Source of the DNA: Spirochaetia bacterium
GTDB lineage: Bacteria; Spirochaetota; Spirochaetia; CAKZLE01
Reading direction: 5' to 3'
Length of the DNA stretch: 64,000 nucleotides
Assembly (NCBI GenBank): GCA_963677595.1
Contig: OY782041.1
Span: forward strand, 512,001 to 576,000
The position numbers and the translations under genes were made by a program. Shown piece by piece: positions 15,401 to 63,328 of this stretch. Every line of letters starts with the position of its first letter. Within the stretch, counting starts at the first letter, position 1. A model generated the notes under the pieces. The model saw only the letters and a list, made by a program, of their open reading frames with translations, made no database searches and was not told the origin of the DNA.

Positions 15401-15474
<74 letters not shown>

Positions 15475-15523
15475 TTAGTAAATGTATGTGACGTAAATAA
15501 TTAACTTTTCTAAACTGGTAAGG

Positions 15524-15542
15524 TGTAGCCGCAAAGTAGCCA
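15524..15542 (+). promoter_or_regulatory. Putative integrase arm-binding repeats
   Basis: TGTAGCCG and AGTAGCCA, 11 bp apart; a matching pair TGTAACCA/TGTAGCCA lies at 51169-51188 at the other prophage end. Confidence 0.55.
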
Positions 15543-15556
15543 TTTAGGAAAGTACA

Positions 15557-16702
15557 ATGAGATACAAAGAACCTTTCACACTATACCCAAGAAAAATTTC
15601 TAGTGGCAAAACTGTTTGGTATTACCGCACATATGATGAGTATGGGGTTAGAACAACTGGGAAAAGTACGGGTGAAACCAATAAAACACGAGCAAGGCTC
15701 TATTGTCTGGATCTATTAAAGAAGGATCAACTCATTTCAAAGAAGATGTCATTCTTTTCTGAATATGCTGAAGGTTGGTTTGAATGGGATACCTGTTCTT
15801 ATGTTAAAACTCGTAGAGTGCGGGGAACAGAGAAACACCCCGGAATTAAAAAGAGTTATGCTGCAGATCTGAAAAATCGATTAAAAAGAGATATCCTCCC
15901 CTCTTTCCAACAATATAAACTCGATAAAATCACTCCAAGAATTATTGAGAATTGGGTGATTAAGAAACGTGATGATGGTCTTGCACCAAAGAATATTAAC
16001 AACTCACTCTCTGTTCTTCGAATAATGATGGAAGAAGCTCATAAGAATAAGATCATTCCGTCCAATCCGGCTGAACTCGTTCAACCTCTTCTTGTTGAAA
16101 GAAAAGTCAGGAGAGTCATCACCCTAGACGAAATCAGAGAATTGTTTGCTAAAGAGAATATGGAAAAACTATGGAAGAATAACATATATTACTACACTGC
16201 AAATTTACTGGCGGCCTCGACGGGAATGCGCCAGGGAGAAATACGGGGGTTATTGAAGAATCATTATTTTGGGGATTATGCTTTAGTAGAATTCTCTTAT
16301 GGTCAATTCGGCTTCACAACAACTAAAACAAATGAAAGAAGGAATGTTCCAATCCCTAAAAGAACACAGATATATATCGATATGCTGTGCACACAACCAT
16401 GGGATTATATTTTTACCATGAAAGGAACAGTTCCTATAGGAAGTAGCAAGCTAACAGAATCATTGTACTCTGCTCTTGAGTTGATGGGTATCACTGAGGC
16501 CGAGCGGAAAGAACGATACATTACTTTTCATGGGTGGCGACATTTCTTTAATACGTATTGTAGATCAAATAACATTGCAGACTCAAAGTTGCAATCTGTT
16601 ACAGGACATAAAACACAAGAGATGGTCGAGAATTATACCAATTTTGAACTTTCAGACGTTAAGGAGATTACAGAACTTCAGAACTCAATGTTTGTTGATT
16701 AG
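15557..16702 (+). CDS. int: Tyrosine integrase
   Basis: TGMRQGE, HGWRH, GH..and NY catalytic motifs; adjacent to attL. Confidence 0.95.
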   Translation: MRYKEPFTLYPRKISSGKTVWYYRTYDEYGVRTTGKSTGETNKTRARLYCLDLLKKDQLISKKMSFFSEYAEGWFEWDTCSYVKTRRVRGTEKHPGIKKSYAADLKNRLKRDILPSFQQYKLDKITPRIIENWVIKKRDDGLAPKNINNSLSVLRIMMEEAHKNKIIPSNPAELVQPLLVERKVRRVITLDEIRELFAKENMEKLWKNNIYYYTANLLAASTGMRQGEIRGLLKNHYFGDYALVEFSYGQFGFTTTKTNERRNVPIPKRTQIYIDMLCTQPWDYIFTMKGTVPIGSSKLTESLYSALELMGITEAERKERYITFHGWRHFFNTYCRSNNIADSKLQSVTGHKTQEMVENYTNFELSDVKEITELQNSMFVD

Positions 16703-37040: not shown

Positions 37041-37054
37041 AAATTTAACATGAT

Positions 37055-37084
37055 CTACAGTAAAGGCCTTAGCCTTTACTGTAG
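37055..37084 (+). terminator. Stem-loop after the precursor gene
   Basis: CTACAGTAAAGGC-CTTA-GCCTTTACTGTAG, a perfect 13-bp stem. Confidence 0.7.
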
Positions 37085-37091
37085 TAATATT

Positions 37092-37595
37092 ATGAAAAAA
37101 AAGAAATTTCCAATTTTAGCATCCCTCATGATCTGGGGGCTAATAATAATTACCTCATATTACTTTTCTTTGTCTAAAGAAATAGAAATAGATAAACTTT
37201 TAGAAATGTCTCCATTAAATATATGGATTAAGAACCTTTTTGTTTTAGGTTTATATATTTCAGGCATATTTACATATGGTATATCAACAATAATATTAAT
37301 AGTATCAAATGCTACTTATATAGGATATATAGTAATTCCATATGTAAAACACTATTCTCAAATTCACCCATTAATATGGATTTTTGTGGTCCTTGAACTA
37401 TTTTCATATATACTTGCATCTTCAATAGGTCTTCCAAATTTCCTGCGTTTATTTAACGTGAAGATGAGAAAAAATTATAAAGTAGATTTAGCATTAACTA
37501 TTCTATGTAGCTTATTACTACTATTAGCAGCATTTCTAGAAAATCATGATATTAATTATATTAATTCTCAACTGGAGCTTCTATGCAATATTTAA
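37092..37595 (+). CDS. SpoIIM/DUF95-family membrane protein
   Basis: I..KNL, N...IG, LEL.SYILA...G and LLAAFLE signatures. Confidence 0.7.
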   Translation: MKKKKFPILASLMIWGLIIITSYYFSLSKEIEIDKLLEMSPLNIWIKNLFVLGLYISGIFTYGISTIILIVSNATYIGYIVIPYVKHYSQIHPLIWIFVVLELFSYILASSIGLPNFLRLFNVKMRKNYKVDLALTILCSLLLLLAAFLENHDINYINSQLELLCNI

Positions 37596-38140
37596 AATTC
37601 ATACTAATTCTTATTTGCGCCTTTGTTCAAACAAAAGTACAAATAGTTAATTTTTCATTTATAGATCTTTCAGATGGGGCAATACCATCAATAGTTAATT
37701 CAAACATCTATTTAGCTTTCATGACATTAATACAATTCTTTATTTATATCGTCTTAGCTAAAATATATACAAAAGCATATTTTTACTTTTTTTTATATGA
37801 TTCTGAAATAAAAGACTCAGAGCAAATTCTCTATAATTCAATTTGCAGGTCTTATATTGTATTTTTAATCTCAGGTATATTATTTCTTTTTTTTGCAAGA
37901 ATCCAACCAGGTTCTTATGAATTATATATTTTTGGCACACACAAAGATGGAAATTCTATAAATAGCTTTGTTATGTTGGCATTAGCCTTTATTCAAGCTA
38001 TAATAGTTTTTTTTCAATTTTATATACAAGTTCTTAAGCAAGAGGAAAATATCAATAAATTTCTTAGATTATTAACTCTTTGTATAATATTACTAATCGT
38101 ACATTTACCTGGAGTGATCCACTTTGGAGGAACTTTTTGA
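37583..38140 (+). CDS. Multi-pass membrane protein (possibly Yip1-like)
   Basis: About five hydrophobic segments within the operon. Confidence 0.55.
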   Translation: MQYLKFILILICAFVQTKVQIVNFSFIDLSDGAIPSIVNSNIYLAFMTLIQFFIYIVLAKIYTKAYFYFFLYDSEIKDSEQILYNSICRSYIVFLISGILFLFFARIQPGSYELYIFGTHKDGNSINSFVMLALAFIQAIIVFFQFYIQVLKQEENINKFLRLLTLCIILLIVHLPGVIHFGGTF

Positions 38141-38862
38141 TTCAAATTAAAAATATATCAAAGCAAATATCCAATAACTTAATTCTTAATAATATTAGTT
38201 TAGATTGCCCAGAAAACAGTATTTATGCACTCATTGGGCCTAATGGAGTTGGAAAAACAACATTAATAAGATGCATTCTAGGAATTTATTCAATTCAAAC
38301 GGGTAAAATATTCATAGATAAAGTGCCAGTTATTTATAATAATTTTTCAACACCATCACATGTTGGTGTTTTTACAGACGATGCAAAAATGTATCCGAAT
38401 CTTTCCGTTAAAGATAATTTAAACTATTATTATTCTTTTTATGAAAAAAAAATATTTAGCAATAATATTTTGTTAATTATTGAAGAACTTGGATTAATGA
38501 AATATTTAGATACTAAATATTATGCCCTATCAACCGGGAATAAAAGGAAGTGTGGTATAGTTAGATCCCTTTTAAATAACCCTAAAATTATTATTTGGGA
38601 TGAACCTTTCGCCTCTCTAGACCCAGAAAGCATCTTTGAATTAAAAACTCTTATTAAACATCTTAAAAGTTTGAAGAAAACAATTTTTATTACATCAAAC
38701 GATCTTAATCGTCTTGAATTGATTTATGATAAAGTAGGTTTTTTCTATACAAATGAACTTTTAGCAGAATACCAAGCAAATTCCTTAAAAACCATGTATA
38801 AGGGCTCTTCACTAGAAGAAATATATTTCAAACTAAAAAAAGAGATTGTTACATATGATTGA
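38137..38862 (+). CDS. ABC transporter ATP-binding protein
   Basis: GPNGVGKT, LSTGNKRK and WDEP; TTG start after GGAGG. Confidence 0.9.
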   Translation: MIQIKNISKQISNNLILNNISLDCPENSIYALIGPNGVGKTTLIRCILGIYSIQTGKIFIDKVPVIYNNFSTPSHVGVFTDDAKMYPNLSVKDNLNYYYSFYEKKIFSNNILLIIEELGLMKYLDTKYYALSTGNKRKCGIVRSLLNNPKIIIWDEPFASLDPESIFELKTLIKHLKSLKKTIFITSNDLNRLELIYDKVGFFYTNELLAEYQANSLKTMYKGSSLEEIYFKLKKEIVTYD

Positions 38863-39613
38863 AAATAAAATATTCCTTTTTGACTTAAAAAATATTTTAA
38901 GAGATAAAAAAACAATGATCACCGTTTTTATTAACTTACTAATCCAATTATTATTATGCTTTTCATTAGTCATAATCAAACTTACAAGCAAAGAAAGCAT
39001 TTTAGAGCCCCTTGCTATTTATATAACTGAAAATTATTCTCCTTTCTTTTTTCTTATTAACTATATTTATCCTGTCTACATATTTGTCTTATTATCTGTA
39101 ATCCCCTTTGTAATCGGATTATCACTTGTAAGTTCAGAGAAAGAAATGGGAACCTTAGAATCTTTACTATATTTACCAATTAAAAGAAGAAGTATTTTTT
39201 ATACAAAAATCATATGTCTTTTTATTGTATCTTATTGCTTATCTCTTATTTGTGTTCTAACCCAACTAATAATATTTGTAATATTTTCAGGTCCACAAAC
39301 ATTAGATCTATTGTTTTGGATTAAGTACTTACTAATATATTTACCATTCTGGATAGCCTTTATTTCTTCAATTATTACCATTATTTCCACAATTTCTAAA
39401 ACCACCAAAGAAGCTAATCAGTTTTCATTAGGTTTTTGTTTTGCTCTACTAATTTTAGTTCAAGGTAGCACCATTTTTAAAATCAATATATTTTCACATT
39501 ATTTTTTTCTGATTATTTTAGTTTTATCTGTTATACCAATTATAATGACTCTTATATGGATTGCTAGAAATTTACAAATTGAAAAAATACTTTTTAGGAT
39601 TTCAAAGTACTGA
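38855..39613 (+). CDS. ABC-2 type permease
   Basis: EKEMGTLESLLYLPI.R..I...K motif. Confidence 0.85.
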   Translation: MIENKIFLFDLKNILRDKKTMITVFINLLIQLLLCFSLVIIKLTSKESILEPLAIYITENYSPFFFLINYIYPVYIFVLLSVIPFVIGLSLVSSEKEMGTLESLLYLPIKRRSIFYTKIICLFIVSYCLSLICVLTQLIIFVIFSGPQTLDLLFWIKYLLIYLPFWIAFISSIITIISTISKTTKEANQFSLGFCFALLILVQGSTIFKINIFSHYFFLIILVLSVIPIIMTLIWIARNLQIEKILFRISKY

Positions 39614-41341: not shown

Positions 41342-42349
41342 TTAGTAATTCGGCAACGCCCGTTTATTCATCTTCACATGCACATACATGTCCTGCGTCA
41401 TGGCAGTGCTATAATGTCCGAGATATTCTGATACTGCTTTGATTGGCTGCCCATCCTCAATCATGAGGGTAGCGAAGCTGTGCCGTAAGCGGTGTGCTGA
41501 TACCGGTCTCCCGATAATCATCTTTCCATATCGATGCAACTCCCGAGATATGTAATTCCTGGAGAATTTCCCTCCTCCGCGATTACAGAACAAGGCTCCC
41601 CGCTGAAATATCCCACCTGGATGGAATTCCTTCATAATCTTTCTGAAGAGATCCTGGTCTATGTAGATAATCCGCTCTTTCTGGCCCTTCCCCATGACGG
41701 TGATCTCATATTCATCCTGGACCGTGAGCTCATAATTACCCCACGTGATATTCACCATTTCAGAGACACGGCATCCGGTATTAATCAAGAATCGGGCAAA
41801 CAGGTGAATCCGCGGGTTGATATGGGAAAGATGATCCATGAATTCATTCAACTCATCCCGTGACAAGATCCGCTGGTACGATACCGCATTGGTCTGTTTC
41901 TTCTGGGACTTGATTGATCGGAACAGCTGATCAATTTTGTATTGCTCGATCACCGTCCAATGATCAGGATTTTGTTTTGAAATCTCAGTCACGATCTTTT
42001 TCACCTGGGCTTTCCGCACATTCACCGTATTGGCTGAGTATCGCTTACTGCTTCGCGCCTCCTCGATGTAGGCGACCAGTGATGGAAGGTCAAAATCATA
42101 ATCACTGAATTCGAGCCAGTAGATCAGCTGTTTATTCTTCTCTACATAGGAGCCAAACCGGACATCATCCAGAAGAAAGTCTACCTGCTTCTCGGTAAGG
42201 TATTTCTTGGTATCCACAGTAACAGCGAGTGAAGAAACAAAGCAGGCAGTATGGTTTCTGAAGGGGAATCCTTTCAGGTTGGTATACCGGGCATGCTTCT
42301 TACATTCAGTGTTTTCGGTATCAAAAAATACGCACGTTTTACACGCCAT
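41342..42349 (-). CDS. Second tyrosine recombinase (XerC/D-like)
   Basis: TGCRVSE, KGQKER, HRLRHSFAT, LGH and MY. Confidence 0.9.
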   Translation of the reverse strand: MACKTCVFFDTENTECKKHARYTNLKGFPFRNHTACFVSSLAVTVDTKKYLTEKQVDFLLDDVRFGSYVEKNKQLIYWLEFSDYDFDLPSLVAYIEEARSSKRYSANTVNVRKAQVKKIVTEISKQNPDHWTVIEQYKIDQLFRSIKSQKKQTNAVSYQRILSRDELNEFMDHLSHINPRIHLFARFLINTGCRVSEMVNITWGNYELTVQDEYEITVMGKGQKERIIYIDQDLFRKIMKEFHPGGIFQRGALFCNRGGGKFSRNYISRELHRYGKMIIGRPVSAHRLRHSFATLMIEDGQPIKAVSEYLGHYSTAMTQDMYVHVKMNKRALPNY

Positions 42350-42495
42350 AATCTCTCTCTTTTCTCCCCTCAAAATTTGTTTTGGTAGCGAATTTTCATA
42401 AAAGTAAAATGTAAAAATATTTCTTTACTTTATCGGTAATTATAAGCCGTCAAGTACGACTTTGTTAACGGAATGCTAATTCTGTATACTTTCTT

Positions 42496-43608
42496 CTAAC
42501 TAGCTTGTTCATCACCGCGCTTGGGCACCTCGACATCATCGGTATTCGTCACCCAAACCCCGTCTTGCAGCTCCATAAACGTCCGGCATTTCCGGCACAT
42601 CCGCACCCCGGTAACACTGCCGAGCTCAGTACTCCCGCAGGTCGGACACACGGTAGGAGCCTCTGGAATCCGGTTCTTCTCTTCAGGACGTTTGACCATC
42701 GCCAAGGCTTCAATCTGGGAGGAGAATACCTTGTACCGGTACCCGGCCTTCTCTGCGAACCAGGCTATGTTCTGGACCTTGTCAGTAAAGAATATCTCGA
42801 GCATGAAGAGTACTTTCTCCATTCCGAAGCGGGAGAGATGCTGTGAAATCAGGTCGATCTCTTCAGTGGTCAAGAGAGCTGGATCATACCCAAAGCGATC
42901 ATGGTATGCTGTGCAAAATGCCTTGGTGATTTCCTGAACTGGATCTGAGAGAGAATGATCCTCTTGGTTTCTCTTTCTCTCTTTAAGCATTTTATTTCTT
43001 TCTTTAAGCATTTGTTGCCCATCACCGTACGTACGGCTAGCCGCTGGGCGGTCAGCTATACCACCGGTCTGTTTTTCATTCTGAGCCGGTGGTATGGATT
43101 CCGACCCTCCGGGTGTATGTGTAGTTCCAGCCGGAGGGTTGTTTTCTGTACCTTCGGCCGGGATTCCTTTTTTTACCGGTGGTATGGATTCTGTACTACC
43201 GGTCATAAATCCGAATAATGCCAGTTGGCCAGCTTTCTCAGGATCGTAGGTTTCCTCAATCTGTGGCTCCCATCGGAAAAAGTTAACCTGGATAAACACA
43301 TCATGCAGCTTGCCGGAAGAGTCCCGCCGTTGGACGTAGGAGATCAGCCCCTTCGTCTTCAGGAACGCCTTAGCCCGTTTAATCTTCACCTGTCCCCATC
43401 CAAGCCCTTTACTCAAGTACGTGTTATTTGCATGAATGACATTCGTCTCCTGTAGCCTGGCGGTGAAGAGTAGATGGTCATAGAGTTGTTTGGCCTCCAA
43501 TCCTTCTTGCCGGTTTGCCAGGAACATCTTATAGAGCCCGACCGAACAAAAAATGAGATCATAATCCTTATCGATGTGTACATTCACAATATTCTGATCA
43601 TCCATCAA
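42496..43608 (-). CDS. Phage replication initiator with internal iterons and a C-terminal zinc ribbon
   Basis: Winged-helix-like N-terminus, low-complexity linker encoded by repeats, CPTC and CRKC. Confidence 0.7.
   Translation of the reverse strand: MMDDQNIVNVHIDKDYDLIFCSVGLYKMFLANRQEGLEAKQLYDHLLFTARLQETNVIHANNTYLSKGLGWGQVKIKRAKAFLKTKGLISYVQRRDSSGKLHDVFIQVNFFRWEPQIEETYDPEKAGQLALFGFMTGSTESIPPVKKGIPAEGTENNPPAGTTHTPGGSESIPPAQNEKQTGGIADRPAASRTYGDGQQMLKERNKMLKERKRNQEDHSLSDPVQEITKAFCTAYHDRFGYDPALLTTEEIDLISQHLSRFGMEKVLFMLEIFFTDKVQNIAWFAEKAGYRYKVFSSQIEALAMVKRPEEKNRIPEAPTVCPTCGSTELGSVTGVRMCRKCRTFMELQDGVWVTNTDDVEVPKRGDEQAS
43041..43202. repeat. Four iteron-like repeats with a 45-bp period (probable phage origin)
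   Basis: CCG..GG...CGG units start at 43041, 43086, 43131 and 43176. Confidence 0.7.
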
Positions 43609-44309
43609 CTTGCCTCCTGTGATATTATGTGATGTTCAATGAGTTTTCGTCTGATATAGTCAACTCCTCGTTGGTATACGAGGGTTTTAAGTGAAATACT
43701 GACTTCTCCATTTGCCTTATTGAACCGCTGCTCAATAACCCGGAAGTATCCCCGATCCACAAAGGTTTGATACGGGATATTATTCTGCTGCAGTACTTGA
43801 ATCTCACGAAGGAAGGTAAAGAGCTTATTTCGCCCGATCCCAGGGATACCCAGAGTCTTGGCAACAGACGCCATTTCGATCGCCGTCTTAGAGCCTGCAA
43901 CCTGATCATAGAAATCGGCCTTCGGCTTGAGTTCGAGGAGTTGTTGCTGCTGTTGATCGATCTTTACCTGAGCGACCTGCAGGGCCCTGGCTATGACTAG
44001 ATCAGGGGAGTTCCAGGCTTTCTCAACTTTGATAAAGTATTCCCTGACCTCTTTCCCCTTCTCTGACCGGGACAACATACAGATGTGTTTCGCGATATCG
44101 AGATTGAGGAGGAAGTCTTCAAATGGCCTACCGCCGGTACTTTGTAAGGGTAACCTGACAAAGTCTATTCCTTCAATCAGATCCTCGAGGTGGGGACCAA
44201 TCCATGAAGCATACCGCATCCTGATTTCCAGGGCGGTATAGAGATCATGCGCAGATACGGAATCTGTACCGATCTCCTGCTGATAGGTAATCGGAACCAA
44301 TTCGTTCAT
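43605..44309 (-). CDS. Antirepressor (AntA/AntB + KilAC)
   Basis: VSAHDL, TGGRP, AKHICM, AWNSP, KPKADFYD and IGRNKLF..LR. Confidence 0.9.
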   Translation of the reverse strand: MNELVPITYQQEIGTDSVSAHDLYTALEIRMRYASWIGPHLEDLIEGIDFVRLPLQSTGGRPFEDFLLNLDIAKHICMLSRSEKGKEVREYFIKVEKAWNSPDLVIARALQVAQVKIDQQQQQLLELKPKADFYDQVAGSKTAIEMASVAKTLGIPGIGRNKLFTFLREIQVLQQNNIPYQTFVDRGYFRVIEQRFNKANGEVSISLKTLVYQRGVDYIRRKLIEHHIISQEAS

Positions 44310-45704: not shown

Positions 45705-45775
45705 TAGCACCGGCAGGATTCGAACCTGCGATAAGTAGGTGTGACAAATCCTCCTAATCAAACCGATTCAGTGCT
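45705..45775 (-). ncRNA. tRNA-like element 3 (acceptor and T-arm intact, D/anticodon arms degenerate)
   Basis: AGCACTG/CGGTGCT-A acceptor; GCAGG-TTCGAAT-CCTGC T-arm. Confidence 0.7.
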
Positions 45776-45909: not shown

Positions 45910-46134
45910 TTACTCATTAGGTCCTGGGGCGATATCAATGAAGAACCTCTGGCCTTCCTTGAAACAGGAGTCTGTATCGTTGGTTTTCACGAAAAAGCTT
46001 GAGGCAGCAAGCAGAGTAAAGGGTGATGAACTTTCATCATCCTGAGAAGATTCTTGACCAAGCACAACCACATCTACTGCCTTCAGGCCATTCCCATAAT
46101 CTGATACCTTATGACTGATACACTCGAACCTCAT
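45910..46134 (-). CDS. Small hypothetical phage protein
   Basis: GAGGAG RBS; MRFECISHKV...F.EGQRFFIDI. Confidence 0.55.
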   Translation of the reverse strand: MRFECISHKVSDYGNGLKAVDVVVLGQESSQDDESSSPFTLLAASSFFVKTNDTDSCFKEGQRFFIDIAPGPNE

Positions 46135-46173
46135 TGACAGCTTCTCCTCTCTGAACAATCACTACAGATATAT

Positions 46174-46285
46174 TGGGGGATGGTGGACTTGAACCACCGA
46201 CCCTGCGGGAACCAGGGCTTATCCTATATTGCCTGGCTATATATCGCCTGGGTCCCGATGCTCTGACCATCTGAGCTAATCCCCC
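46174..46285 (-). ncRNA. tRNA-like element 2 (anticodon loop replaced by a long hairpin)
   Basis: GGGGGAT/ATCCCCC-A acceptor, TA-GCTC-AGATGGTCA-GAGC D-arm, GGTGG-TTCAAGT-CCACC T-arm; 112 nt in total. Confidence 0.8.
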
Positions 46286-46463
46286 AGGTACCGGCAACGC
46301 CGGTCCTATGAAAAGTATGGGAACATTTCAGGTTGTTCCCGGACCTCCCAACATGTACTCATCACACTCTGCAGGTGGCAGATTCGAGGGGCCGATGATT
46401 CCCCTCCGGTCGGTCAGGCATTGGCATTCTACCTGGTCTCGTATAGCTACAAACATCGGGTTA

Positions 46464-46517
46464 TGGATTGGACGGGACTTGAACCCGCAGCCGCTACTGG
46501 CTCCTATATTCCAACCC
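46464..46517 (-). ncRNA. tRNA-like element 1 (54-nt mini-tRNA with G3-U70 and A73)
   Basis: GGGTTGG/CCAATCC-A acceptor, AGCC-AGTAGC-GGCT arm, GCGGG-TTCAAGT-CCCGT T-arm. Confidence 0.7.
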
Positions 46518-46573
46518 GTTTCTCGTCTCCCCTGGTAAGGTGTAGCCATTTCGCCTTACAGATTCACCAGACT

Positions 46574-46807
46574 CTACGATCTGATGTTTTTATAAACAGC
46601 AACAACTTCTTGTGCATCTATAAACTCGTCCAACTGTTTTTTTGTGAACATGACCCGTCCATTCAACATTTTCATGTAATCAATTTTCCTGTTCCCCATC
46701 ATTCTCCGAAGTGTTGACTCCGAAATTCGGAGATACTTTGCAGCTTCAGATACCAGTAGTAATGGAGAATTCAATTCGTTAATTGAAACCGTTGCAAGAT
46801 TCTTCAT
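46574..46807 (-). CDS. Excisionase-like HTH_17 protein
   Basis: LL.VSEAAKYLRISESTLRR....KI...K....V.F....LDEFI. Confidence 0.85.
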   Translation of the reverse strand: MKNLATVSINELNSPLLLVSEAAKYLRISESTLRRMMGNRKIDYMKMLNGRVMFTKKQLDEFIDAQEVVAVYKNIRS

Positions 46808-46902
46808 AATCCCTCCTGCCGGGTATCGTGATACCCAGAACGTTATATAAAATGCTGAAAACTGTAGGGCCGGCCACTGAGGCGCAGTGTAGCCCTGCAG
46901 CA

Positions 46903-47082
46903 TCAGCAATCTATTTCTTTTGTTTCACGGGTATACCGTTCAAGAATTGCCTGGCGAATCCACCAACCTTTTTTCTGGCCCTGAGTTTTTAGAAGTAACT
47001 CAAGGTTTTTGTTTTCTGTAGGTGTGAGGTCCGTCCGAACTGTACAAGTTTGTTTCTCTTTGATTACATCAACATCAATCAT
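46903..47082 (-). CDS. 59-aa ribbon-helix-helix-like protein in the Cro position (absent from the ORF track)
   Basis: MIDVDVIKEKQTCTVRTDLTPTENKNLELLLKTQGQKKGWWIRQAILERYTRETKEIDC; starts 6 nt after the -10 box. Confidence 0.6.
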   Translation of the reverse strand: MIDVDVIKEKQTCTVRTDLTPTENKNLELLLKTQGQKKGWWIRQAILERYTRETKEIDC

Positions 47083-47088
47083 GTTGCT

Positions 47089-47154
47089 ATAATAGTCTCA
47101 CTTCTGTGACATGTCAACCATTTTTTTCCAGTTTTGTACCTTTTGTGATACAAT
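47089..47154. promoter_or_regulatory. Lysis/lysogeny switch promoters
   Basis: Minus: TTGACA(47112-47117)-17-TATTAT(47089-47094) with palindrome TGACATGTCA. Plus: extended -10 TGaTACAAT (47146-47154). Confidence 0.7.
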
Positions 47155-47159
47155 TTGCC

Positions 47160-47540
47160 ATGGACCAAGATATTTTAGAGTTTTGGAAACGATTCGATAC
47201 TCTATGCCGAGCACAAGACCTTTCTCTTCTGGAAGTATCAAGCCTAACAGGTATAAGCTATTCAAATATCAGGAATCAAAGGACAAAACTCATACTTCCA
47301 AAGACTATTGCTACGCTAAAAATTGCCAAAGCTCTGAACACAAGTGTTGAGTATTTAATAACTGGATCGGGATCAGAGCAGATTGTGGACCCCGTCATAG
47401 ATATTGTATTAAAACGTGAACCCCTTAAAGATCTGATGATTAAAATGATCAGTTTAAACGATAAACAACTAGCAGCCATTTCCACAGTTGTCGATTCCTA
47501 TATGCCGGATCAACCGAAACATCAGAGCCAGGTCGGATAA
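47160..47540 (+). CDS. CI-like XRE repressor
   Basis: FWKR...TGISYS.I...P......KIAKALNTSVEYLITG; divergent from the early operon. Confidence 0.85.
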   Translation: MDQDILEFWKRFDTLCRAQDLSLLEVSSLTGISYSNIRNQRTKLILPKTIATLKIAKALNTSVEYLITGSGSEQIVDPVIDIVLKREPLKDLMIKMISLNDKQLAAISTVVDSYMPDQPKHQSQVG

Positions 47541-47756: not shown

Positions 47757-47955
47757 ATGCCATATTATTTTGTTAATGATGTTGCTCAGCATGATGGATA
47801 CCATGAAGTTCATGATAGTTCTTGTGGATGGATTGGTCTAAAAAAACATTACACAGACTTAGGTTGGCATGCAAACTGCCAGGAAGCAATGAATGCAGCA
47901 ATATCCTCTTGTAGATGGTTGTAAGTTTTGTTGTTTCCATTGTCATAAACGATAG
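47757..47955 (+). pseudogene. Frameshifted small Cys/His-rich protein
   Basis: MPYYFVNDVAQHDGYHEVHDSSCGW...LG...NCQEA continues in another frame as VDGCKFCCFHCHKR*. Confidence 0.5.
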
Positions 47956-47968
47956 AGAATATACAATA

Positions 47969-48385
47969 ATGAACTCATGCCTTAATTGTTATAATCTGAC
48001 ACAAAACTGGATAAGTATGGAGCCAGCAACTCATAATCAAACCCAATCTGAACCTGTTTCAGAAGAGAGAAGAGAAATTCTTAAATCCACTGTAACCCCC
48101 TTTAATAGGAATAGACCTTCCTGGATTTCATGTTCTTATAGTGTTTGGGATTATGAAAGAGTGTTAGAACCCTTACAATTACACGAAGCTATTACGAAAT
48201 CGAGAAATAACTGTCCAATGTTTACTCCTTTCTCTAAACACAAAGAAAAACTTATCATTCAGGGAAAAGTAATCAGGAATAAAACAAGAAAAGAAAATTT
48301 AAAACAAACAATAATTAGAATATGGAGACCTGTAATCACTGCAGTGCTTATTGGCTTAGTAACCACCTATATCTTGAAGAAATAA
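47969..48385 (+). CDS. Hypothetical Cys-containing protein with a C-terminal TM
   Basis: CLNC start and hydrophobic C-terminus. Confidence 0.55.
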   Translation: MNSCLNCYNLTQNWISMEPATHNQTQSEPVSEERREILKSTVTPFNRNRPSWISCSYSVWDYERVLEPLQLHEAITKSRNNCPMFTPFSKHKEKLIIQGKVIRNKTRKENLKQTIIRIWRPVITAVLIGLVTTYILKK

Positions 48386-48400
48386 TAATAGGAATATTCA

Positions 48401-49375
48401 ATGGCTGAAACGAAAAACATAAGTGAAATGGCAAATAGAATATCGGAAGAGATATTCAAAGTATTTGGATGGGAAAGAGTTGGTCAGAATGATAAAAACT
48501 GGCCATGTATCAATCCAGATCACAAGAAGAAGACTCACCCTACGGATTGTGTTTTTACATATCCTGATCCTTACTCGAATTCGCATACATACTTCAATTG
48601 TGACTTGAAAAGTTATAAGGAAACATCAATTACAACAAAATCATTTCGAGACTCATTAATAAGTTTAGCTATGGGGAGTTCCTGTGCAAAAAAAAGTAAG
48701 GAATGGCAAAACGCTTATATTACAAATGAAGTAAATTCTAATATTCATGGATTATTATTTATCTTTAACTATAATAATTTATATGATAAAGACTTATATA
48801 TTGAGTTAGAAAAAATTACCAAAACAGCTTTACCATTGAATATCAATACAAAATTATTTCTTATAACTCCAAAAGATATTAGACTTTTAAATACAATTGC
48901 TAATGATATCATGGTATCTATAGGAAAAAATGTATTACCATCATTTGAGAATATTTCCTTTTTTTATCCGGATCAAGATAGCAGGATCACAACGAAATCA
49001 AATTGGAAAAAAGCTGCTACGATAGAAATGTTGAAAAGCCAATGGATAATCTTAAAACATCGTAAAGATAGTTCAATCCCTAATTATGATGGTTTGACAA
49101 TTTACTATAAAAGCAGAGGGACGATTAGAGAAGAATTCGTATATTTAATTGACTATCTAGTGCATTGGCAGATAATTAGCAGCATCAACAATATTACAAT
49201 CAAATTAGTCAATCCAGATGAAAGTGCATTTGAGTTAGCTGAAAAAGCCAAATCTACTTACTGTTCAAGATATAGTATTTATGAAAATCATGAATCTACA
49301 ATAAAAAGTATAAAAATCAAATCAGTTCAAAATGTAATTCCTACTTTTTATGAAGCAGAAATTGGTATGGAGTAA
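48401..49375 (+). CDS. PD-(D/E)XK-like nuclease, GapS4a-like candidate defence protein
   Basis: E...IF..FGW...C...H...THP.D.VF.Y.DP...DLKSY pattern. Confidence 0.55.
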   Translation: MAETKNISEMANRISEEIFKVFGWERVGQNDKNWPCINPDHKKKTHPTDCVFTYPDPYSNSHTYFNCDLKSYKETSITTKSFRDSLISLAMGSSCAKKSKEWQNAYITNEVNSNIHGLLFIFNYNNLYDKDLYIELEKITKTALPLNINTKLFLITPKDIRLLNTIANDIMVSIGKNVLPSFENISFFYPDQDSRITTKSNWKKAATIEMLKSQWIILKHRKDSSIPNYDGLTIYYKSRGTIREEFVYLIDYLVHWQIISSINNITIKLVNPDESAFELAEKAKSTYCSRYSIYENHESTIKSIKIKSVQNVIPTFYEAEIGME

Positions 49376-49380
49376 TTAAT

Positions 49381-50499
49381 ATGGAGTTTAAATCAGTTTT
49401 TTACCCTACAGAAATGGATTTATATGATGCTTTCATCTCAAATCACCAGAAGGTGACAAATAATTATCTAATAACGTTGCTGAGAGATAAGGGTATTTTG
49501 GTTTCCAATGATTGTTCACGAGAATTCTTAGTAGGTTATGTTTCACAATTAAATTTTGATTACCTCGAATTTAAAAACATTTCAAACTATCTTACACCTA
49601 GCAGTAGATCGGAAAAAACTACTTCAGAAATTATTGAAACTGAAATCAATGATGATGAAATACTACAGGGCTTTGATAATCTAAAAGAAGCAAGAGGGAG
49701 TCATAATGAAAATTATAATATTGTTCTTCTTGAAGGAGCAAACACCACAAGAATAGAAATTTTCTATGAAGAAGTTGATCATTCAAAAACAAGAGTAATC
49801 CAAAAAGTCACTAAAGAAGGATTTATTGATATAGTAAAAACTGATAAAGGAATAAAAATCCGTCATACATCAAATGATAGAGTAGCGAGAATTAAAGATT
49901 CTTTTATTAAACAGATCGCAGAGAACAAGGACGATAAAATTGAACCTATTAGAATTTCATTTAGCGGTATTGCAGATTTAAAATACCAAACCATATTCTT
50001 TACTAGTTTATTGAAATATATAAAAGGATTGACTCCTGAGACTGTTGTCAAAATAAGTCTTAGTAGAGATGATATTACCCCACTTGATTTAGATATTGAC
50101 GATGCAGAAAAAGAGGACCTAGAGGATAATATGCGTCAATGTATTAGAAAAGCAAGATTTGATGGGGAAAGTCTTTTAGAAACAGACATCTACCAAGAGT
50201 TGAAGCAAAAAGGATATTATTTAACATCAATGCGTTGGATTTCTCTTGAGAATCTAAATAACCCGAGGAAATTTGAATTTGAAGCTTCATTTGTGGATAG
50301 AGGATATGCAATTGTTTTTGAATATTCGCTTAAGGGAGTATATAATTTTAAAAAAGAAAAATACACAAACCTAATTACAAAAATACCAGAAGATGAGAAA
50401 AAAAATCTAATATCCAGATTTGAAACTGCAGCAAATCAGGTTTATACTAAAATAATTAACGAAATCAAAGAGTTGAAAAATGACAATAAGAACATATAA
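49381..50499 (+). CDS. GapS4b-like partner protein
   Basis: L..LLRDKGILV...RE.L.....L....EF......EK.TS N-terminus; coupled to the nuclease gene. Confidence 0.5.
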   Translation: MEFKSVFYPTEMDLYDAFISNHQKVTNNYLITLLRDKGILVSNDCSREFLVGYVSQLNFDYLEFKNISNYLTPSSRSEKTTSEIIETEINDDEILQGFDNLKEARGSHNENYNIVLLEGANTTRIEIFYEEVDHSKTRVIQKVTKEGFIDIVKTDKGIKIRHTSNDRVARIKDSFIKQIAENKDDKIEPIRISFSGIADLKYQTIFFTSLLKYIKGLTPETVVKISLSRDDITPLDLDIDDAEKEDLEDNMRQCIRKARFDGESLLETDIYQELKQKGYYLTSMRWISLENLNNPRKFEFEASFVDRGYAIVFEYSLKGVYNFKKEKYTNLITKIPEDEKKNLISRFETAANQVYTKIINEIKELKNDNKNI

Positions 50500-51160
50500 G
50501 ATCAATTATAACTTTGATTTGGATATCCTGTTTAAAGGGATGCAATCCTGCCCATATAATGAAGATGAAAAAAGTGGGTACTTCATTGATAGCTTCATTA
50601 ATAATCAAATTGAAGGACGATTTGTTTTAAAAAGAATCTTCTCCGAAGAATCTATTTCTCCAATAGATGGAGAAATTCAACTTAACGAAATAATTCAATT
50701 TGAGGTTTTTCATTTCAAGATTTTTCATGATAATAAAATACTGATGCTCTATAATTCTCCAAGAAGCACATCAATTTTCTTCACTAGTATTAACTCTCTA
50801 TTCGATTTTTCAATATCAATAGAAAAATGTGATTTGAATCTTTTAAACTTTATTGAAAACGTGAAATTAAAAACTGATATCAATGAAGTTATATATTTAG
50901 AATTATGTAATATCTCATTTTCGAATCTTACAAAGGGAAAGGTCATAATTTCAGGCAATGAAAATGTTATACCATATATTGAAAAAGCAACATTCCATTC
51001 CACAAACTATGAGATAAATCGATTAGGTTTAAAAATAATTTTTAATGACAAACCAATTAGATTAGATATTACAAATACTGGGTCTTATAGGGTTGCTGAT
51101 TCCTATGCCCATTTTGTTCTCCCGAAGATCTCTGAAGCTATACTTGATTATTTTGAATGA
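50480..51160 (+). CDS. Third gene of the candidate defence operon
   Basis: Overlaps the upstream gene; same AT-rich composition. Confidence 0.55.
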   Translation: MTIRTYKINYNFDLDILFKGMQSCPYNEDEKSGYFIDSFINNQIEGRFVLKRIFSEESISPIDGEIQLNEIIQFEVFHFKIFHDNKILMLYNSPRSTSIFFTSINSLFDFSISIEKCDLNLLNFIENVKLKTDINEVIYLELCNISFSNLTKGKVIISGNENVIPYIEKATFHSTNYEINRLGLKIIFNDKPIRLDITNTGSYRVADSYAHFVLPKISEAILDYFE

Positions 51161-51369
51161 TCGTTTTATGTAACCAGTTATGTAGCCAATTGAGTGCTAT
51201 TGACCTATATAATTTGGTATATTTTAATATTGATTAACTTTTTATTTTGTTATATAGTATAAATATATAAAATTTTAAATGAGGCTTCTTGCGGTTCAAC
51301 CCACATTCCTCACTATTTCTCAGCAAAAAACGGGTATTTAATTTCGGGCTAAAATCGGTTTAAAAAGCG

Positions 51370-51732
51370 CTACCCTTCATCGTCCAAGAGGACCAAAATG
51401 GCTTCATACGCATCCTGAGAGAGCTTCTTCATGGCATTCATCGTCTTCTCCAGGGTTCTCCTGTTCTCAATCCATGGTTGGAGGACCTCAGCCTGCTGCT
51501 CTGTGAGCTTCCTGGCTACGGTCTTCCCGCCCTTTTTGGTCGTCCAATAGTAATACGGTCCATGCTTGGCCTCAGTGTCTGTATGACACTTGCACGAGGG
51601 GTTCCCGCAGGTAAGAAACCGTTTGGAGATGGATCCTGACCAGATAAATTCGATCGTGCTCAGTTCCTTGGCGAGTTCCTGCTGTTTGCGGCGAAGTACC
51701 TGAAGGCGCTTCTGTGCCGTCTCGGTGGTCAT
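51370..51732 (-). CDS. DUF6788-like IS accessory protein
   Basis: GSIS.....CGNPSCKC......HGPYYYWT; lies inside the IS ends. Confidence 0.7.
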   Translation of the reverse strand: MTTETAQKRLQVLRRKQQELAKELSTIEFIWSGSISKRFLTCGNPSCKCHTDTEAKHGPYYYWTTKKGGKTVARKLTEQQAEVLQPWIENRRTLEKTMNAMKKLSQDAYEAILVLLDDEG

Positions 51733-51822
51733 GACTTGACTCCTCTCTTGTCCTACTGTATAATACAGTAGGTTCAGTGATCAGTCAAGTCCTGTTTCCA
51801 CGACCGCTACAGGAGGATACCG

Positions 51823-53526
51823 ATGGCCAGTACTCCGCCCCTTTCAACCCTGTTTCAGCATACCAGAATCTATACCCATTCCTACCTGCCCATTGCGGCG
51901 GCCTACTGCCGCATGCTCGGGTTGAGAGACATCGTGGATGCGGCGGTGGAGACCCGTATGCAGCTATCTCCGGGGCTCGTGGTACAGACGATGGTGCTCG
52001 ATGTCCTGCATGGACGGTCGCCGCTGTATCGGATCGAGCAGTTCATCGAGCAGCAGAACCGCAGCCTATTGCTGGGACAGGAGGTAGATCCGCATCTGTT
52101 CAATGACACGAACATAGCTCGGTCCCTGGATGCGATCTTCGATGCCGGCCCATCGAAGATTGTGACCGAACTGGGGATTCGGGCAGCACAGGTCTTCGAT
52201 CTGGATATGCATGCCCTCAGTTACGATACTACCAGTACGAGTGTCTGGGGGGAATACCGGGGGAGTGAGCAGGAAAAGACCCCGGGGCCTTCGATCGTCC
52301 TGGGGCACTCCAAGGATCACCGACCGGATCTCAAGCAGTTCATGACGGAGTTACTGTGCGTGGATCATGGGGTCCCAATCTTCAGCAGTACCCTCAATGG
52401 GAACTCCTCAGACAAGACGTCTAACAATGCGATGCTCACACGGATCAGTACACTGCTCTCCCGACATGGGTTGGGAGATGGGGCCTGTATCTATGTTGCA
52501 GACTCGGCCATGGTGACGCAGGAGAATCTGGAGGCTTTAGGGTCGATGCCATTCATCAGCCGTCTTCCGGCAACCTACGGCGCATGTGACCAGGCAATAA
52601 GGGAAGCGATCGGAGCGGGTCGCTGGAGTCCCATAGGCATGATGGCTGAAACACCAACAGGGAAGAACCGGCCTCCTGCGATCTATAAGGGGTGCGAGAC
52701 GACGGTAACGTTGTATGAAAAGCCCTATCGCGGGGTCGTGATACATTCGAGTTCCCATGATAAGCGAAGGCAGAAGAAGATTGACAAAGCGATTGAGCAA
52801 TCGTTGAAGGAGCTGAACGGGAAATTGAAGAAAGTTCAGCGACAGTATTACTGCAGCGAAGATGCGCAGGTTGCTGCTGCCAACCTCGCTGCGGTCTCTT
52901 CCCCGCTGCACTCGTTAACGGTTACGATCCAAGAAGTGGCGGTTCGGCGTCGTGGACGTCCCCCGAAGGAGGGTCCGCCGCCTGTAGATCTGCGGTATGA
53001 GTTGAACTGGGAGATCACCGAAAAGTCGGACAAGCTGCAGGTGCTCAGAGAGCAGGCAGGATGTTTTGTGCTGCTTACCAATGTTGCTGTTGCATCGCTT
53101 GATGCCGCATCGGTACTGCGTACGTACAAAGGCCAGTATGGGATCGAGAGTGATTTTTCATTCCTCAAGGATCCCCTGGTAGTCAATGACCTGTTTCTGA
53201 AAACCCCTTCCCGCATAGATGCATTGGGGATGATTCTCGTGATCGCCCTGATGGTCTGGCGGTTGATGGAGCGGCAGATGCGGCGGTATCTCCAGAAGGA
53301 AGGTACTACGGTACCAGGCTGGGACAACAAACCGACGGCAAAGCCGACTTCATTCATGATGAGTACCGTGTTTGGCGGTATCATGGCGGCAGAGATGGGA
53401 GCAGAAGCGGTGCTGGTAAATCCGCTCTCTTCCCGTCAGTTGGCCTTCCTGTCTGCATTGGGTCTTGATGAACGCGTATTCTACGACAAGGGGGTGAGGT
53501 GTGTCCTGACCTCTCTGCATGCATGA
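51823..53526 (+). CDS. IS1634-family DDE transposase
   Basis: YDTTS, GHSKDHRPDLKQ, VADSA and YK.QY.IE..F.FLK.P. Confidence 0.9.
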   Translation: MASTPPLSTLFQHTRIYTHSYLPIAAAYCRMLGLRDIVDAAVETRMQLSPGLVVQTMVLDVLHGRSPLYRIEQFIEQQNRSLLLGQEVDPHLFNDTNIARSLDAIFDAGPSKIVTELGIRAAQVFDLDMHALSYDTTSTSVWGEYRGSEQEKTPGPSIVLGHSKDHRPDLKQFMTELLCVDHGVPIFSSTLNGNSSDKTSNNAMLTRISTLLSRHGLGDGACIYVADSAMVTQENLEALGSMPFISRLPATYGACDQAIREAIGAGRWSPIGMMAETPTGKNRPPAIYKGCETTVTLYEKPYRGVVIHSSSHDKRRQKKIDKAIEQSLKELNGKLKKVQRQYYCSEDAQVAAANLAAVSSPLHSLTVTIQEVAVRRRGRPPKEGPPPVDLRYELNWEITEKSDKLQVLREQAGCFVLLTNVAVASLDAASVLRTYKGQYGIESDFSFLKDPLVVNDLFLKTPSRIDALGMILVIALMVWRLMERQMRRYLQKEGTTVPGWDNKPTAKPTSFMMSTVFGGIMAAEMGAEAVLVNPLSSRQLAFLSALGLDERVFYDKGVRCVLTSLHA

Positions 53527-53747
53527 ACTTCGTAGGTGTACCTGCGTCTGATCCTCAGAACCTATGAGAAGGCTGGTTACTGTCCTGATCATCAGCATGT
53601 CTGTTCAGACGGGGTAGCAACCAGGCGGATTTGCCGATTTTTATGCCGTGTGGAGGATCGGTAAGGATGAATAGCCCTTCGTAGTCTCAATCCTTTCCTG
53701 AAATGGAAAATCCTGCTATGTGTGCGTCATGAAAGTGAGGAATGTGG

Positions 53748-53769
53748 GGTTCAACTCCCCTTACCTCCA
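53748..53769 (+). repeat. attR core
   Basis: Copy of the tRNA-Ala 3' end. Confidence 0.9.
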
Positions 53770-59298: not shown

Positions 59299-59329
59299 AT
59301 GGACCTCACATCATTCGTCTTACTGACAG

Positions 59330-60034
59330 TATACCTGTTGAGAAGATTTCTTTCCATGGAAAAATATATTATACTGTCTGAAACCAGGGATCGGAGGTGA
59401 CCGTATGTCCAGATTCTTCAAGAAGCGGGATGCAGTACTCGGCAAGCGCCCGGGAGAACTCGTCTATATAGGCAAGCACGGTACGAATGTACTCCGTGCC
59501 GATACGATCAGCTATACCCATGCAGGGCTTGCGGAACAGGAGGGGCTCCCCGCTGACAGGGTCCCGAGGTCGGCACCGGACGGGAACCTGTGGGTCAATG
59601 TCGAGGGTATCTCCGATGTCCCAGCCATGGAACAGCTGGAATCCCTCTGGGACCTCGATCCTCTGGTCGCGGCCAGTATCATGCATACCGGGACGAGGCC
59701 GATGATCATGAGGACCGGGGACGGGATCTTCTTCCTCATGAAGATGCTCTGCTACGACGAGGACCACGGGAGGATCACCTCCGAGCAGCTGAGCATGCTC
59801 ATCACCGATTCCAGGCTGATCACCTTCCAGGAAGCTGCCGGGGATGTCTTCGATGCTGTCAGGGCAAGGCTCGGGGATGTGAACTCACGCCTCAGGCACA
59901 GCGGCGTTGACTACCTCGCCTTCTCCCTCATGGATTCCATCGTGGACAACTATATGCTCATCATCCAGAACATAGCGGAAGCGGTAGAGAACATCGAGGA
60001 GAAGATGCTCGAGAGACCCGACGAGACGGTCATC
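59330..60034 (+). repeat. 705-bp direct repeat, copy 1
   Basis: Matches 62195-62899 (offset 2865); the ORF translations are identical. Confidence 0.92.
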
Positions 60035-60094
60035 CCCGGTCTTTTTACCAGAATTAGCGAGTATGCCCATTTTCCCCATTTCAGCCCTGTCTAG
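59405..60094 (+). pseudogene. corA: Truncated corA duplicate
   Basis: Identical to the intact copy up to DETVIP, then reads into the IS end and stops. Confidence 0.9.
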
Positions 60095-62194: not shown

Positions 62195-62899
62195 TATACC
62201 TGTTGAGAAGATTTCTTTCCATGGAAAAATATATTATACTGTCTGAAACCAGGGATCGGAGGTGACCGTATGTCCAGATTCTTCAAGAAGCGGGATGCAG
62301 TACTCGGCAAGCGCCCGGGAGAACTCGTCTATATAGGCAAGCACGGTACGAATGTACTCCGTGCCGATACGATCAGCTATACCCATGCAGGGCTTGCGGA
62401 ACAGGAGGGGCTCCCCGCTGACAGGGTCCCGAGGTCGGCACCGGACGGGAACCTGTGGGTCAATGTCGAGGGTATCTCCGATGTCCCAGCCATGGAACAG
62501 CTGGAATCCCTCTGGGACCTCGATCCTCTGGTCGCGGCCAGTATCATGCATACCGGGACGAGGCCGATGATCATGAGGACCGGGGACGGGATCTTCTTCC
62601 TCATGAAGATGCTCTGCTACGACGAGGACCACGGGAGGATCACCTCCGAGCAGCTGAGCATGCTCATCACCGATTCCAGGCTGATCACCTTCCAGGAAGC
62701 TGCCGGGGATGTCTTCGATGCTGTCAGGGCAAGGCTCGGGGATGTGAACTCACGCCTCAGGCACAGCGGCGTTGACTACCTCGCCTTCTCCCTCATGGAT
62801 TCCATCGTGGACAACTATATGCTCATCATCCAGAACATAGCGGAAGCGGTAGAGAACATCGAGGAGAAGATGCTCGAGAGACCCGACGAGACGGTCATC
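62195..62899 (+). repeat. 705-bp direct repeat, copy 2
   Basis: Matches 59330-60034. Confidence 0.92.
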
Positions 62900-63328
62900 C
62901 CCGATATCGTCTTCCACAAGAAGGAGCTGCTCTACCTGAGGAAGACGATCCTCCCCTTCCGGGACGCCCTGCGCCAGTTCCTCAGCGACCTGCCGCCGCT
63001 CTTTGCCGATTCCGAGCGGTTCCTCCAGGACCTCCTCTCCAACCTGCTCCATATCGTGGACACGATCGAGGTCTACCGGGAGATCACCTCAGGGCTGCAG
63101 AACACCTATGACTCCTTCATGAACAACCGGCTCAATGACATCATGCGGTTCCTCACCATCTTCTCAGTCATCTTCCTGCCGCTGACGCTGATCACCGGGA
63201 TCTACGGGACGAACTTCGACTACATCCCGGAGCTGCACTTCGCCTATGGGTATCTGTTCCTCTGGGGGACGCTGGTCATCTCCACCGTGGTCATGATCAT
63301 CATCTTCAAGAAGAAGAAATGGCTCTGA
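62270..63328 (+). CDS. corA: Magnesium/cobalt transporter CorA
   Basis: N..M..LT..S.IFLPLT.ITGIYGTNF..IPEL (GTN variant of GMN). Confidence 0.9.
   Translation: MSRFFKKRDAVLGKRPGELVYIGKHGTNVLRADTISYTHAGLAEQEGLPADRVPRSAPDGNLWVNVEGISDVPAMEQLESLWDLDPLVAASIMHTGTRPMIMRTGDGIFFLMKMLCYDEDHGRITSEQLSMLITDSRLITFQEAAGDVFDAVRARLGDVNSRLRHSGVDYLAFSLMDSIVDNYMLIIQNIAEAVENIEEKMLERPDETVIPDIVFHKKELLYLRKTILPFRDALRQFLSDLPPLFADSERFLQDLLSNLLHIVDTIEVYREITSGLQNTYDSFMNNRLNDIMRFLTIFSVIFLPLTLITGIYGTNFDYIPELHFAYGYLFLWGTLVISTVVMIIIFKKKKWL

Follow-up and report, generated by a model that had tools for sequence, protein, structure and literature searches.

A copy of the integrase leader behind the excisionase gene of a spirochaete prophage and its possible role as an antisense key to integrase translation

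Introduction

In many prophages that are inserted in tRNA genes, the integrase gene (int) is uncoupled from the excisionase gene (xis) and lies behind a strong host tRNA promoter. Integrase (Int) has to be low in the lysogen yet ready at induction, and the mechanism by which this is achieved is known for few systems. The DNA analysed here, a stretch of 64,000 nucleotides from a Spirochaetia bacterium (contig OY782041.1, positions 512,001 to 576,000; hereafter the window), holds such a prophage, in which a segment of the int leader recurs directly behind xis, where the xis transcript would carry its complement. An earlier note, made from the letters alone, had taken this repeat for either a trans antisense RNA or an additional DNA site for Int. 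What is the repeat, and what could it do for the integrase?

The prophage and its att arms

The window holds a complete siphovirus-like prophage in tRNA-Ala(GGC), with the lysis, tail, head and replication genes on the minus strand. Among the named homologues of Int, most come from spirochaetes, the closest being 49% identical. The following features make up the integration and control regions.

15401..15474, plus strand: host tRNA-Ala(GGC), whose 3' 22 nt (15453-15474) are the attL core
15557..16702, plus strand: tyrosine integrase gene (int), 381 aa, spirochaete subfamily
46574..46807, minus strand: xis-like gene (HTH_17 / Tn916-Xis), 77 aa, likely a recombination directionality factor (RDF)
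47106-47540, plus strand: cI-like gene
47089..47117, minus strand: early promoter-like site TTGACA-17-TATTAT (11/12, a consensus match only), divergent from the cI-like gene
43605-44309: antirepressor gene, downstream in the control region with the tRNA-like elements

Judged by its sequence, the TTGACA-17-TATTAT site would drive cro and xis, and the repeat behind xis would thus be transcribed as the complement of the int leader. A second tyrosine recombinase is encoded at 41342-42373 in the early/replication region and is 82% identical in the sister prophage of genome G001. As cargo, the prophage carries a three-gene block of unknown PHROGs (7059, 6531 and 5850) at 47915-51160, which is also found beside int in the related locus L039, and an ABC-2 transporter/SpoIIM-like operon at 37050-39613, which the aligned part of G001 lacks. 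Outside the prophage, the host DNA contains an exact direct repeat of 710 bp (59329-60038 and 62194-62903).

Both att arms carry paired short repeats, and the right arm is interrupted by an insertion sequence (IS).

15522..15544, plus strand: two GTAGCC units with a period of 11, likely the P'-arm Int arm-type sites, inside the leader hairpin loop
51167..51190, plus strand: TATGTAACCAGT/TATGTAGCCAAT pair with a period of 12, likely the P arm, 112 bp inside the original attR
51300..53748: IS encoding a DUF4277 protein (51823-53526), with 15-bp terminal inverted repeats (51300; 53734-48) and a 6-bp duplication, GTTCAA
53749..53769, plus strand: remainder of the attR core, followed by a strong hairpin that is likely the displaced host tRNA terminator

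The paired units at 15525/15536 and 51170/51182 are direct repeats about one helical turn apart, and the repeated GTAGCC unit is predicted to be, and very likely is, an arm-type site of the integrase. Exact tandem repeats with a period of 10-12 occur in 75 of 166 related int leaders as against 170 of 4980 shuffled ones (about 3%); in a smaller earlier set they were seen in 45 of 109 homologous int leaders. By our own count, and taking an exact leader match of at least 12 nt as the threshold, the leader unit recurs some 125-200 bp inside attR or across attP in seven of about 23 long elements with an att repeat (G757C1, G743C63, G763C22, G768, G191, G271 and G735). The same att-arm recurrence is found in G493 with the GTAGCCA unit itself, and L484 retains nearly the same unit pair and linker as the window. 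The IS, presumably of the IS1634 family, sits in the T-loop part of the attR core, the P arm now lies 2.45 kb from the core, and the prophage split in this way is probably excision-defective. A GGTAAGG at 53660 was considered as an attR arm site and ruled out, being inside the IS.

A copy of the int leader behind xis

46532..46551, minus strand: 20 nt copied from the attL arm/int leader, one 11-nt unit being absent; 22-41 nt past the xis stop and complementary to the leader in the xis transcript

Two identities had been reported in the earlier note, one of 16 nt between 15515-15530 and 46532-46547 and one of 10 nt between 15536-15545 and 46542-46551, and both proved exact (16/16 and 10/10). 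Together, 46532-46551 has the sequence of the int leader at 15515-15545 from which one 11-nt unit, lying between two GTAGCC repeats, has been taken out, with 20/20 bases identical, and it contains one arm-type unit (46539-46550 on the plus strand). The 31 kb given in the earlier note as the separation holds as a distance along the prophage; on the circle the two sites are about 7.3 kb apart, and some 4.8 kb if the IS is discounted.

Is the copy more than a coincidence? A prophage of 38 kb may easily contain some 16-mer repeat, as 53 of 100 order-4 Markov simulations did, and the pair discussed here was chosen post hoc. Against chance stands that a match to the 82-nt int leader was found in 0/300 simulated prophages (analytic chance about 0.001), that matches of at least 16 nt within 150 nt behind xis occurred in 0/20,000 simulations, with a maximum of 15 reached once, and that four more bases match the second unit. 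In the 4,325,376-base genome the shared 16-mer has exactly two occurrences at 0-1 mismatches. A chance origin is thus very improbable and largely refuted already; the repeat behind xis is a real, one-off copy of the att arm. Matches in a scan with the 16-mer were three copies of one unrelated phage stretch and were taken as chance. A 73-aa open reading frame that starts inside the copy (46549-46328) was rejected, as it has no family match and carries a 1-nt deletion in the strain variants X1 and X2.

In both of these variants the 20-nt copy itself is unchanged. Over 46337-46869 (533 nt) X1 and X2 show 23 variant sites, none of them in the region of the copy and hairpin (46530-46572), which for the 20-mer is weak evidence (p roughly 0.3); in X2, nearby non-coding DNA is about 4% different (10 sites in 237 nt) and the copy is still 20/20. 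The copy must therefore be older than the X1/X2 split, while as evidence of selection its constancy is weak. Contig joints at 45917-46151 and 46980-47484 in X1 skip 233 and 503 bases, which suggests that the X1 sample includes variant prophages whose early or cI segments differ.

Related elements were searched for a similar arrangement, taking every fetched locus with int and an xis-like gene. These 127 int-xis pairs (113 leaders) include two likely transposase ORFs recovered with the xis HMM, duplicates and genes outside their element, and they count as non-orthologous because the searched sets yielded no Int above 49% identity and no close Xis. None of the 127 has an antisense match longer than 10 nt in the 150 nt after xis, compared with 16 here, and the longest antisense match among the 21 opposite-strand pairs is 8 nt. 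For comparison within the host order only 6 genomes were available. The sister prophage G001:C26, whose structural proteins are about 80% identical, has a different int/xis module and no copy of the 20-mer. In the G001 sister prophage and the G004 fragments the integrase is about 29% identical and xis is of another type, and their early regions have nothing notable in common with their own int leaders. The fragmented G002 genome (86% complete) yielded no copy of its own int leader. L184 shares the circular layout and has an Int that is 48% identical, and its contig breaks off within xis. No relative was found in INPHARED or in viral scans that used two early proteins or the tRNA-like 3' end as queries, and a viral scan with the L184 cI returned distant repressors only. 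Being absent from related elements, the copy may be a relic.

The comparison of G001:C26 with the window also reveals a near-identical phage body combined with an integrase of a different subfamily, another kind of xis and another target tRNA (Met instead of Ala), which is a clean swap of the integration/immunity module. In L034 and L005, inverted matches of 13-16 nt connect the int upstream region with the xis upstream region and are possibly shared operators.

The region between xis and the first tRNA-like element

46535..46559, minus strand: inverted repeat GTAAGG/CCTTAC, with a context-dependent fold
46464..46517, minus strand: tRNA-like element 1, an acceptor stem with G3.U70 and a T arm, scoring 22.6 bits where the Rfam gathering score is 29

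The earlier note had further proposed a hairpin that displays the leader complement in its loop. Such a hairpin does form in short pieces and is nearly absent in longer contexts: the pair probability of the stem GTAAGG(46559-54)/CCTTAC(46540-35) reaches about 0.98 when 33 nt are folded and about 0.6 for the 56 nt between the xis stop and tRNA-like element 1, and is at most 0.02 in three longer contexts, and the folding z-scores of the region (-0.6 to -1.1) are not significant. As a core-type site, the inverted repeat was ruled out by eye, its spacer being 9 as opposed to 7 at attB.

tRNA-like element 1 lies 14 nt 3' of the copy, has no variant sites in X1/X2, and is a candidate RNase P site at which cleavage is possible. 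It is one of three tRNA-like elements in the minus-strand early operon (46174-46285, 46464-46517 and 45705-45775); in that at 46174-46285 a 44-nt insert replaces the anticodon loop. By eye, a tRNA-like element is found at the same place in G001 and an apparent tRNA-Ser in G004, and tRNA genes lie 3' of xis in G745C3, G746C14 and G741C99. An Rfam search of the window matched RF00005 (tRNA) as the only family; the int-alpA RNA motif gave no match in it.

A predicted hairpin over the int ribosome-binding site

15504..15553, plus strand: predicted int leader hairpin of 15 bp, with its 5' arm at 15504-15519 and its 3' arm at 15539-15553 covering the Shine-Dalgarno sequence (SD) AGGA at 15546-15549
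15488..15516, plus strand: candidate int promoter GTGACG-17-TAAACT, a weak match (8/12) that falls short of the scan threshold

The other partner of a putative RNA interaction, the int leader, is predicted to fold into a hairpin that buries the int SD and holds the arm sites in its loop, a feature absent from the earlier note. Opening the int ribosome site costs 10.9 kcal/mol, compared with 2.6 kcal/mol in shuffled leaders, and exceeds all 20 of 20 shuffles. Among related elements, SD-locking int leaders are commoner than expected, with 25 of 168 above all 20 shuffles and about 8 expected, kin in this set not being independent. Hairpins of diverse sequence that enclose an arm-site pair and are predicted to pair with the SD occur in L003, L019, L027, L031, L048, L053, L061, L079, L150, L155 and others, and in many other leaders of the family the hairpin ends just before the SD. 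According to these folding models, hairpins around arm sites are possibly a family-wide cis-regulatory RNA structure.

Whether the lock matters depends on where the int mRNA starts. No terminator was found between tRNA-Ala and int, which are 82 nt apart, and a strong hairpin follows attR instead, from which we infer read-through into int in the lysogen. In contrast, an mRNA from the weak GTGACG-17-TAAACT promoter would be without the anti-SD arm, so that an RNA key would be unnecessary; across related leaders, promoters have no consistent position relative to the arm repeats. The P arm carries a promoter-like site, TTGATT-17-TATAGT (51230-51258), which would face int on the circular phage. In this it resembles Pint/Pcirc of ICEclc, for which the part of the source drawn on here describes no RNA switch (PMC5812530).

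Could the copy open the int leader?

A trans antisense RNA that tunes Int translation, functionally like lambda sib, had been one of the earlier suggestions. Such pairing is energetically feasible, with a net binding of about -15 kcal/mol, yet the predicted sign is activation, unlike sib. Cofolding of the leader with the xis 3' RNA lowers the cost of opening the SD from 8.1 to 1.6-2.1 kcal/mol at a net binding of -15 to -17, and with the tRNA attached to the leader the cost falls from 6.8 to 2.1 kcal/mol. Within 700 nt around the xis end, no segment binds the leader better than the copy segment (-19.2), and the predicted pairing runs beyond the copy into the anti-SD arm, where the X1/X2 change at 46528-29 keeps one pair as G.U by our reading, which assumes an unchanged leader. 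As cofolding frees the SD, the element, if it works as RNA, should activate Int.

A course of events can be proposed on this basis. In the lysogen, read-through from the tRNA promoter would yield int mRNA that is translationally locked by the leader hairpin. Upon induction, the early promoter would give rise to xis mRNA, whose 3' end, perhaps released by RNase P at tRNA-like element 1, would pair via the leader loop and free the SD, and Int and Xis would rise together despite their separate, opposite transcripts. We tentatively put first the reading that the copy is an antisense RNA key that opens the modelled hairpin over the int ribosome-binding site, since all 20 bases would take part in pairing but not in Int binding, and since the predicted lock needs opening. 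It is possible, if rather doubtful, that the whole constitutes a natural toehold switch coupling excisionase and integrase, with the 3' end of the xis mRNA as the trans key; similarly doubtful is the idea that a single sequence combines the functions of DNA site for Int, lock on translation and target of the antisense RNA.

What speaks for activation is that the identity continues for 8-10 nt outside the arm unit, in bases that the P arm has not retained; these would be needed for pairing and are not expected for Int binding, which favours pairing. On the other side, that a complement of the inhibitory leader frees the SD is a prediction and is not specific to this placement, as 40 of 70 placements of a perfect 16-mer, those at 15491-15530, also open the leader. 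On the short mRNA from the weak promoter, the RNA is predicted to be inert or slightly inhibitory (1.5 to 2.1-2.4), and unfolding the antisense segment costs 9-11 kcal/mol. In three related elements with the same layout and locked leaders of 11-13.5 kcal/mol (G757C1, G176a and G739C1), no opening RNA was found within 700 nt of the xis end. Activation is also opposed by the 127 int-xis pairs, none of which shows such a copy, and by the sister prophage in G001 with its other int/xis module. Furthermore, excision of KplE1 is switchable by RDF expression alone with Int low and constant, according to the part of the source cited here (PMC2951348).

Other readings of the copy

A functionless duplicate is a possibility to be taken seriously, if still a doubtful one: a 31-nt piece of the att arm would have been copied once next to xis and have lost one unit by slippage. 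At this place, the edge of the xis-cI-att-int module, the copying might, just as uncertainly, have come about through aberrant recombination or a template switch. This would fit a copy that is unique among the 127 int-xis pairs, whose strain invariance is weak evidence, and which lies just inside the edge of the int-type-specific module, homology with G004/G001 ending near 46450. In L222, L234 and G749C150 a GTAGCCA P-arm site lies 14-50 nt 3' of xis in sense orientation, so that xis next to an arm site has precedent as a native layout. The copy in the window, however, is oriented the opposite way, and its inversion together with its match to the phage's own P' flank points to direct copying from the phage's own leader. 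A neutral history also has to accommodate 20/20 identity kept beside non-coding DNA that has diverged in X2, and it makes a coincidence of both the antisense position in the xis 3' UTR and the span of the leader loop.

The copy might alternatively act as DNA, as the earlier note had also considered, and the shared unit bears this out in part. Int at 46539-46550 would then damp or sense early transcription by a roadblock or a loop to att, which we consider unlikely, as we do the corresponding feedback of Int on the xis operon. In a scan of the prophage the copy ranks third and is the best-scoring arm unit outside the att arms (14.4 compared with 16.4 for the top unit, partly by construction), and IntS autoregulates via arm sites, in the portion of the source cited (PMC2951348). 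Yet a chance unit inside a gene (31311) scores 13.9, some 540 nt separate the copy from the early promoter upstream of it, and among the related loci listed no exact arm unit was seen beside an xis remote from att. Arm-type arrays would comprise at least two units within about 200 bp of the att core, and both att arms have pairs, but the copy has just one unit, and the original attR core is 4.7 kb away. Its 8-10 additional identical bases are missing from the P arm, and Int binding alone is thus insufficient to account for its length. Still less probable is an antisense repressor, whereby xis 3' RNA would pair beside the SD or trigger int mRNA cleavage and keep Int below Xis after induction, an outcome, no more probable here, which lambda reaches with sib. 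The 10-nt match (15536-15545) does adjoin the SD, and a duplex of 16-20 bp is a possible RNase III substrate. On read-through mRNA, by contrast, the 16-bp register wins and frees the SD, and the short mRNA binds natural fragments weakly (-6.7 to -8.2) with barely any change in the SD cost. In KplE1 and P4, the RDF is known to be linked to a down-regulation of int, as far as the cited part of the source goes (PMC2951348).

Comparison with known systems

DsrA is an anti-antisense activator of rpoS. Among prophage RNAs, IsrK of Gifsy-1 acts in trans and turns on the translation of a phage mRNA, and its target is orf45-anrP, not integrase, in the part of the source used here (PMC12197685). If the copy has an RNA role, it would, by analogy with what that part describes, work like such an IsrK-type trans-activating antisense RNA (PMC12197685). 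The proposed system would differ in that its target doubles as an Int arm-type DNA site and its regulator is the xis 3' UTR.

The CI RNA of P4 is matured by RNase P. The window resembles the C4 antisense RNA of P1/P7 (PMC12197685) and the CI RNA of P4 in short complementarity encoded in trans, tRNA-like elements and an antirepressor gene downstream. C4 and CI RNAs repress ant or early genes, whereas the complement in the window would target int. It also departs from this class in that the complement lies 14 nt 5' of the tRNA-like body and only RF00005 matches.

Of the systems that control integrase itself, lambda sib acts in cis from beyond int, on the PL transcript that also carries int, and lowers Int; the window element would share with it that the Int:Xis ratio is set after induction at the RNA level (PMC2951348, cited in part). 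The element differs from sib in position, as it follows xis on a separate, opposite-strand transcript 31 kb away from int, and in predicted effect, which is a rise in Int. KplE1/HK620-type prophages (IntS, TorI) are closer in layout: they are inserted in tRNA genes and have attL arm-type sites that overlap the int upstream region, and they and the window both have int and the RDF on uncoupled transcripts and arm sites over the int upstream region, the window repeats sharing the layout of the KplE1 arm-type sites, as far as the part of the source used here describes them (PMC2951348). Their control is transcriptional repression by Int and the RDF on DNA, unlike the RNA key proposed here; in the cited part of that work no leader hairpin or distal arm copy was seen, and 'antisense' occurs 0 times in its main text (PMC2951348).

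Implications

A search of the open-access literature, judged by titles and the beginnings of abstracts, found no description of such control of int. As a functional element, the copy would be a single instance, striking if true. In that case, control of an uncoupled integrase by a key in the xis 3' UTR would join two other solutions as a third, next to lambda's co-transcription with sib and the DNA-level autorepression of KplE1. It is likewise possible, if rather doubtful, that hairpins which enclose arm sites and lock the SD serve the spirochaete integrase family more widely. Should the copy be neutral, there remain the identification of the arm sites and the leader hairpins that are predicted to lock the SD in the integrase family.
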